In this document: piece by piece, positions 10,103-10,419 of the stretch
Position numbering within the stretch: the stretch's first letter is position 1
How the letters are laid out: each line of letters begins with the position of its first letter
Assembly: GCF_003334385.1 (NCBI RefSeq)
Contig: NZ_QOWN01000068.1
Source: Escherichia coli
Lineage (GTDB): Bacteria > Pseudomonadota > Gammaproteobacteria > Enterobacterales > Enterobacteriaceae
Length of the DNA: 10,419 bases
Reading direction: 5' to 3' (one strand)
Position numbers and translations under genes: made by a program
Notes under the pieces: generated by a model
Database searches by the model: none
Told to the model about the DNA's origin: nothing
What the model saw: only the letters and a program-made list of their open reading frames with translations

Positions 10103-10155
10103 TTTCTGGTGACATTTGGCGGTATCAGTTTTACTCCGTGACTGCTCTGCCGCCC
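10103..10155 (+). ncRNA. dicF: DicF small RNA (53 nt, ftsZ-targeting division inhibitor)
   Basis: tttctggtgacatttggcggtatcagttttactccgtgactgctctgccgccc matches recalled K-12 DicF except one position (A instead of G at nt 12); 3' GGCGG...CCGCC stem followed by TTTTT (10156-10160); located upstream of dicB. Confidence 0.8.
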
Positions 10156-10338
10156 TTTTTAAAGTGAATTTTGTGATGCGGTGAATGCGGCTATGCGCAC
10201 GCGGAACAGTTAAAGCAGTAAGGCGGTATTTTACGGGCGTAACGAGCATCAACTAACCCGGCGTTAATTGTTAACTGGTTAACGTCACCTGGAGGCACCA
10301 GGCACTGCATAACAAAATTCATTGTTGAGGACGCGATA

Positions 10339-10419
10339 ATGGAAACGTTATTACCAAACGTTAATACGTCTGAAGGTTGTTTTGAAATTGGTGTCACTAT
10401 CAGTAACCCTGTATTTACT
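10339..10419 (+). CDS. dicB: DicB-like cell division inhibitor, 5' part only (truncated by window end)
   Basis: ATG at 10339 with GAGGA upstream; encoded METLLPNVNTSEGCFEIGVTISNPVFT matches the recalled DicB N-terminus (MKTLLPNVNTSEGCFEIGVTISNPVFT...). Confidence 0.75.
   Translation, partial: METLLPNVNTSEGCFEIGVTISNPVFT

Follow-up and report, generated by a model that had tools for sequence, protein, structure and literature searches.

DicF and DicB are prophage-encoded inhibitors of cell division. The dicF gene studied here differs from that of Escherichia coli K-12 by a single base, A instead of G at nucleotide 12 (A12 and G12), which raises the question of whether this change alters the pairing of the small RNA with its targets and, if so, with which of them. 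The initial annotation had placed the change in the segment pairing with ftsZ mRNA. We analysed the whole 10,419-nucleotide stretch of DNA that carries the gene (the window) and conclude with high confidence that the locus is an ordinary lambdoid dicBF cassette in which A12 is a natural lineage allele situated in the xylR-pairing seed, with a weaker repression of xylR predicted while control of ftsZ and manX is spared. The element itself is already known and its alleles are common; the modest lead offered by this locus is that, in the 5′ part of DicF, no other position varies as much as nucleotide 12.

Identification of the dicF-dicB Cassette

Scanning the entire sequence of the window against Rfam gave two matches above their gathering scores, DicF and, far upstream, sok. 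The DicF match (RF00039) is full-length, extending from 10104 to 10155 on the plus strand (77.0 bits for a gathering score of 48, E = 4.7e-16, model positions 1–52 of 52), and the 53-nt dicF annotated in MG1655 (b1574) maps onto positions 10103–10155. Rfam and the alignment to K-12 thus agree with the placement initially given to a 53-nt DicF at 10103 followed by the start of dicB. The features of the cassette are the following:

10103–10155 (+): dicF, coding for the 53-nt DicF sRNA, A12 allele (Rfam RF00039; 52 of 53 nucleotides identical to MG1655 dicF, b1574)
10107–10119 (+): DicF nucleotides 5–17, single-stranded 5′ seed complementary to xylR +8 to +20 (13-bp duplex with the K-12 allele)
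10114 (+): DicF nucleotide 12, A versus G in K-12, central in the xylR-pairing seed (alignment; register from DicF G7C and xylR C+18G)
10118–10160 (+): terminator-type stem-loop (10118–10154) followed by a T run (10156–10160) (Rfam consensus structure; minimum-energy fold)
10126–10155 (+): DicF nucleotides 24–53, complementary to the ftsZ ribosome-binding region (−29 to +1), pairing also with manX and with the pykA ribosome-binding site (hybrid energy; identical to K-12)
10339–10419 (+): dicB, first 27 codons, running off the end of the window, with a GAGGA Shine-Dalgarno sequence at 10327–10331 (26 of 27 amino acids identical to MG1655 DicB and 27 of 27 to dicB of strain cM8a)

The K-12 base at nucleotide 12 had been given as G in the initial annotation. 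Alignment to NCM3722 and MG1655, both of which have G where the window has A, bears this out and identifies nucleotide 12 as the sole difference inside DicF. The consensus of RF00039 has “a” at this position. All consensus pairs of the Rfam alignment are standard in the window copy. The minimum-energy fold (−15.9 kcal/mol) is the same for A12 and G12, with nucleotides 16–52 paired and then TTTTT. A simple consensus terminator scan misses this hairpin because its loop exceeds the limit of the scan. When compared to DicF of the K-12 Qin prophage (RF00039, b1574), the window copy shares 52 of 53 nucleotides, the terminator-type hairpin with its T run, the 3′ part complementary to ftsZ, manX and the pykA ribosome-binding site, and the upstream flank at the 5′ end. 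It is likewise found between ydfC and dicB. Nucleotide 12 of the xylR seed is A here and G in K-12.

Nucleotide 12 Faces the Centre of the xylR Duplex

According to Balasubramanian et al. 2016 (PMC5069750), pairing with the ftsZ ribosome-binding site involves the 3′ region of DicF and pairing with xylR its 5′ end. The xylR binding site is within the first 10 codons, as the xylR1 fusion is unregulated (PMC5069750). Two engineered mutants are of direct interest: DicF3 (nucleotides 6–8 of the 5′ seed, GGU to CCA) and DicF11 (G7C), both of which lose xylR regulation in experiments (PMC5069750). DicF11 and xylRcomp11 (xylR C+18G) form a compensatory pair (PMC5069750, supplementary oligonucleotides). 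Because this G7C/C+18G pair fixes the register of the duplex, nucleotide 12 faces xylR C+13. The G12 allele forms 13 contiguous base pairs with xylR, whereas A12 interrupts them centrally by an A·C mismatch and leaves 7 + 5 bp. The window copy thus lacks the full K-12-type complementarity of the 5′ seed to xylR, by the A·C at nucleotide 12/xylR +13.

Pairing energies were calculated with ViennaRNA (in kcal/mol) for targets that have the MG1655 sequence and with Hfq ignored. Unrestricted duplex prediction on 140-nt targets returned over-extended hybrids with very large interior loops; it was replaced by windowed and segment-restricted runs and by the cofold ensemble. The xylR seed duplex has a predicted energy of −20.3 kcal/mol for G12 and −14.5 for A12, to be compared with −15.7 for DicF11 and −12.6 for DicF3. 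The natural U12 allele gives −14.5 kcal/mol, equal to A12. When intramolecular structure is taken into account in the cofold ensemble the values are −15.45 (G12), −10.46 (A12), −9.48 (DicF11) and −8.02 kcal/mol (DicF3), and those of DicF9 and DicF23, two mutants of the 3′ region described below, are unchanged. With a predicted cost of 5–6 kcal/mol for xylR pairing, A12 thus equals mutations by which xylR control is abolished in experiments. The changes of DicF3 (nucleotides 6–8) and DicF11 (nucleotide 7) affect this duplex too, at a similar predicted energy cost; A12 differs from them in being a natural allele, in its central position in the duplex and in that its effect on xylR is a prediction. 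On these energies A12 would weaken xylR repression. The interrupted 7 + 5 bp duplex (−14.5 kcal/mol) may nevertheless be enough for repression, especially at high levels of DicF.

Of 5,408 E. coli genomes, 5,381 share one and the same xylR site (−30 to +51), which rules out a compensatory xylR change in the host. Full pairing of the seed with xylR is a trait that belongs to the K-12 allele rather than to the DicF family, whose Rfam consensus has A.

Distribution of the Nucleotide 12 Alleles

The alleles were counted in 5,426 complete E. coli genomes, ~3,900 of which have dicF, taking the best copy in each record. This best copy is the exact 53-mer with G12 in 3,761 records and that with A12 in 310. 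No exact A12 copy was found among the 22 deposited phage genomes that carry dicF. At 206 IMG/VR loci anchored on the DicF 3′ part, nucleotide 12 reads G 169 times, A 22 times and T 12 times. Among the first 30 nucleotides of DicF in these loci it stands out clearly as the most variable, followed by nucleotides 10, 1 and 29 with fewer than 10 changes each, a ranking that is indicative only since the loci are redundant and came for one half from a scan fixing the other positions of the seed. The two minor alleles (A and T) disrupt one and the same base pair with xylR.

When the 250-nt flanks were clustered, the window fell into a group of eight loci, all with A12, which are at least 98.6% identical to one another and differ by ~11% from the closest flanks with G12. 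Another flank cluster contains four A and one G, and two further A12 copies are found among G12 flanks. A12 is shared by every one of the nearest relatives (the cM8a and BR1220 prophages and five IMG/VR loci); the closest complete genome is that of strain cM8a, 99.7% identical over positions 9800–10419. A12 is an established natural allele found on a distinct prophage lineage to which it is mostly bound. The DicF and dicB differences from K-12 are not unusual: A12 is present in 310 complete E. coli records and in the Rfam consensus, and at the DicB amino-terminus MET is about as common as MKT (see below). A full-text search that covered part of the DicF papers found no discussion of natural DicF alleles.

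The same distribution bears on a reading that is possible, although on balance we doubt it, in which A12 is neutral: xylR repression would persist through Hfq and the 7 + 5 bp, and the allele would simply be carried along by its prophage lineage. The tie between A12 and a flank haplotype that has diverged so far from the K-12 type is expected of hitch-hiking, the residual duplex energy is not negligible, and a position that is the most variable of the 5′ part fits with weak constraint. However, G7C costs less than A12 in the seed duplex (+4.6 versus +5.8 kcal/mol) and yet relieved xylR regulation experimentally, and a mismatch at the centre of a seed is usually more harmful than one near its end.

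We retain the reading in which A12 would lower xylR repression. It can be extended, with a confidence that stops not far short of even, to the proposal that nucleotide 12 is a natural specificity switch: on the modelled pairing, non-G alleles would break the central xylR G:C while ftsZ control is kept. If this is true, some prophage lineages have a DicF without control of the xylose regulon, possibly pairing better over AUGU start codons, and these alleles would parallel in nature what the engineered separation-of-function mutants do. Since the centre of the xylR seed varies among natural DicF alleles, the metabolic side-effects on a given host may depend on the prophage lineage whose operon is derepressed. 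This is of relevance when the list of K-12 DicF targets is extrapolated to other strains.

Predicted Processing of DicF

In K-12 the 53-nt DicF is reported to result from an RNase E cut at its 5′ end and from early Rho-independent termination at the hairpin with its T run, and a 72-nt form from RNase III cleavage of read-through transcripts (PMC9438474). The sequence around the DicF 5′ end is that of K-12. Folding of the segment 10040–10345 predicts a long double-stranded stem:

10163–10183 (+): 5′ arm of the predicted stem, probable RNase III substrate
10303–10323 (+): 3′ arm of the predicted stem

This 21-position stem, composed of 12 bp (10163–10174 with 10312–10323) and 8 bp (10176–10183 with 10303–10310), brackets the spacer between dicF and dicB and extends across the position where the 72-nt DicF is expected to end (~10174). 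Its arms differ in other loci solely by changes compatible with wobble pairing. We infer from the predicted fold that the RNase III cleavage yielding the 72-nt form probably occurs in the 10163–10323 stem.

The base at 10311 is A in the window, which creates a G10175·A10311 mismatch beside the presumed cleavage site, and C in K-12, in cM8a and in each of the 148 other loci that could be read. A10311 seems to be private to this copy and is rarer than the nucleotide 12 allele.

The centroid fold of 10040–10345 also has an 8-bp hairpin (10093–10100 with 10107–10114) whose loop contains the DicF 5′ end (10103) and whose closing pair is formed by U10093 and nucleotide 12. A12 turns this pair from G·U to A-U and could affect processing by RNase E. 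That A12 exerts its effect in this way, by stabilising the hairpin in the precursor and changing RNase E cleavage, is in our opinion improbable: the hairpin is a prediction and the exchange of a G·U for an A-U pair is minor.

Pairing with ftsZ and Other Targets

Control of ftsZ is impaired by the mutations DicF9 (nucleotides 32–34, CUC to GAG) and DicF23 (nucleotide 36, G36C) (PMC5069750, mutagenic oligonucleotides). DicF9 loses ftsZ repression, while DicF3 retains both ftsZ repression and filamentation (PMC5069750). The core hybrid between DicF nucleotides 24–53 and ftsZ −29 to +1 has a ViennaRNA energy of −27.9 kcal/mol with G12 as well as with A12. The same hybrid has −19.7 kcal/mol in DicF9, −24.7 in DicF23 and −27.9 in DicF3, in agreement with the published phenotypes of the three mutants. 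Nucleotide 12 is thus outside of the ftsZ-pairing segment to which it had been attributed, ~20 nucleotides from the positions on which ftsZ control depends, and the comparison of ftsZ pairing for the two variants that the initial annotation had proposed gives equal core energies. The division inhibition should be unchanged because the ftsZ-pairing part of DicF (~nucleotides 24–53) is identical to K-12.

The idea that the nucleotide 12 change alters inhibition of cell division through ftsZ draws some support from long ftsZ fragments: in unrestricted predictions the DicF 5′ end contacts ftsZ +27 to +60, with −40.8 kcal/mol for G12 versus −38.7 for A12, and the cofold ensemble with a 100-nt fragment gives −12.4 for G12, −10.6 for A12 and −8.9 kcal/mol for DicF3. 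The small loss of A12 in this ensemble stems from predicted 5′-end contacts past ftsZ +27. Those contacts are not needed, since the ftsZ assays used a strain whose ftsZ fusion has only four codons (PMC5069750), and DicF3, in which nucleotides 6–8 are destroyed, still represses ftsZ and causes filamentation. Together with the positions of the published mutations and the equal core energies, this led us to reject an ftsZ effect of nucleotide 12, which we consider very improbable; A12 should not count as a change in ftsZ targeting. Least credible of all is that the A at nucleotide 12 stems from an error in sequencing or assembly or from a mutation private to this copy, a reading that has nothing more in its favour than a single-base difference from the reference and is refuted by the recurrence of the same 53-mer in 310 complete E. 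coli records, of A12 in 22 of the 206 IMG/VR loci and in the nearest relatives, and by the flank cluster.

The manX hybrid involves DicF nucleotides 25–53 and is unaffected by A12. The main pykA hybrid is in the DicF 3′ part. At the pykA start codon A12 gives an A-U pair in place of a G·U wobble (−33.1 versus −32.7 kcal/mol), a swap that contrasts with the loss of pairing caused by the DicF3 and DicF11 changes. With A12, control of manX and ftsZ is predicted to be intact and that of pykA nearly so.

These data can be assembled in the following scheme, which leans on K-12 for its regulatory steps. The operon would be silent under the prophage repressor. Upon transcription DicF would be excised as in K-12, RNase E generating its 5′ end and either termination at the hairpin and T run (53 nt) or RNase III (72 nt) its 3′ end. 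Together with Hfq, DicF would then block ftsZ translation by its nucleotides 24–53, and DicB, judging from its sequence identity, would inhibit division through MinC. The sole predicted functional departure is due to A12, which stands opposite to C+13 in the seed that pairs with xylR codons 3–7 and would lead to a weaker xylR repression.

The dicB Gene

DicB blocks cell division via MinC. The window contains the first 27 codons of dicB, coding for a 62-amino-acid protein, and this fragment matches K-12 DicB at 96% and the product of cM8a dicB at 100% identity. Its initiation codon is the ATG at 10339. Codon 2 (10342–10344) is GAA (Glu) instead of the K-12 AAA (Lys), so that, as had been noted beforehand, the protein begins with MET where K-12 DicB has MKT; DNA alignments show this and the other 26 residues are identical. 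When compared to Qin DicB (b1575), the Shine-Dalgarno sequence, its spacing and the upstream stem are shared, and the 26/27 match of the first 27 residues is interrupted only at residue 2, Glu here and Lys in Qin. Searching the complete E. coli genomes for the exact 71-mer found the Glu2 (GAA) version in 1,770 records and the Lys2 (AAA) version of K-12 in 2,106. In the IMG/VR loci of the first scan codon 2 is GAA in 64 cases and AAA in 30. Glu2 is a common allele of DicB for which no consequence is indicated.

The Prophage Setting

The window covers the early region of a lambdoid prophage, ~95% identical to prophages found in many E. coli genomes, and its gene order agrees with that of the annotated prophages of cM8a and BR1220. 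The following features upstream of dicF were called from ORF content and from the annotation of these relatives:

189–1010 (−): Q-type antiterminator
1007–1387 (−): RusA
1388–2446 (−): DUF968 protein
~2894–3219 (−): hok/sok type I toxin-antitoxin, with sok at 3044–3219 (Rfam RF01794, 120.5 bits) and a hok-like ORF inside a 70-amino-acid ORF (2894–3106)
3287–3973 (−): QueH-like epoxyqueuosine reductase (annotation in cM8a and BR1220)
4127–4567 (−): DUF977 protein
4568–5338 (−): DUF1627 protein
5364–6104 (−): DnaC-like loader (NF009043, 494 bits)
6111–7088 (−): replication initiator
7096–7521 (−): YdaT-like gene
7505–7786 (−): cro-like gene, divergent from the putative repressor
7887–8306 (+): putative prophage repressor of 139 amino acids in the dicA position (position; annotation of relatives)
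8572–8727 (+): ydfA (ORF list; start chosen by eye in a longer ORF)
8729–8857 (+): ydfB (ORF list; start chosen by eye in a longer ORF)
8887–9105 (+): ydfC homologue with an in-frame TAG at 8974–8976 (alignment and translation)
9128–9529 (+): 133-amino-acid ORF between ydfC and dicF (ORF list; hypothetical protein in cM8a and BR1220)

Homologues of ydfA, ydfB and ydfC upstream of dicF, dicB downstream and the pair formed by the putative repressor and the cro-like gene (7505–8306) support by gene order the assignment of DicF and dicB to an operon in the immunity region of the prophage. The names ydfA and ydfB are putative, being based on resemblance to the K-12 proteins; neither ORF has an NCBIfam match, and the order ydfA-ydfB-ydfC is that of the annotated relatives.

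The cassette had been described as normally silenced by a DicA-type repressor. This holds for the position of the repressor gene, which is equivalent to that of dicA, but the protein is no clear orthologue of DicA. Only the C-terminal 46 amino acids of the putative repressor are similar to DicA (33% identity, E = 2e-07 in BLASTP), its match to NF007257 is confined to the C-terminal part and scores 24.5 bits, below the cut-off of 101, and no Pfam domain was found in the protein encoded by 7887–8306. With its Rac-like (YdaS/YdaT-type) and Qin-like parts, the immunity module has a mosaic structure.

Several differences separate the window from K-12 Qin. The immunity region, with its YdaS/YdaT-like genes and a repressor that is DicA-like at the C-terminus only, and the replication genes are different, and ~1 kb including the 133-amino-acid ORF, absent in Qin, separates ydfC from dicF. 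The hok/sok module is found where Qin has hokD. A 105-amino-acid antisense ORF (9489–9806, minus strand), annotated as a hypothetical protein in relatives, overlaps the 133-amino-acid ORF; the two ORFs have no NCBIfam match. The TAG codon of ydfC stands where MG1655 and cM8a have CAG (Gln30), and represents either a truncation to 29 residues or a sequencing error. Such a premature stop in ydfC could cause polarity on dicF and dicB.
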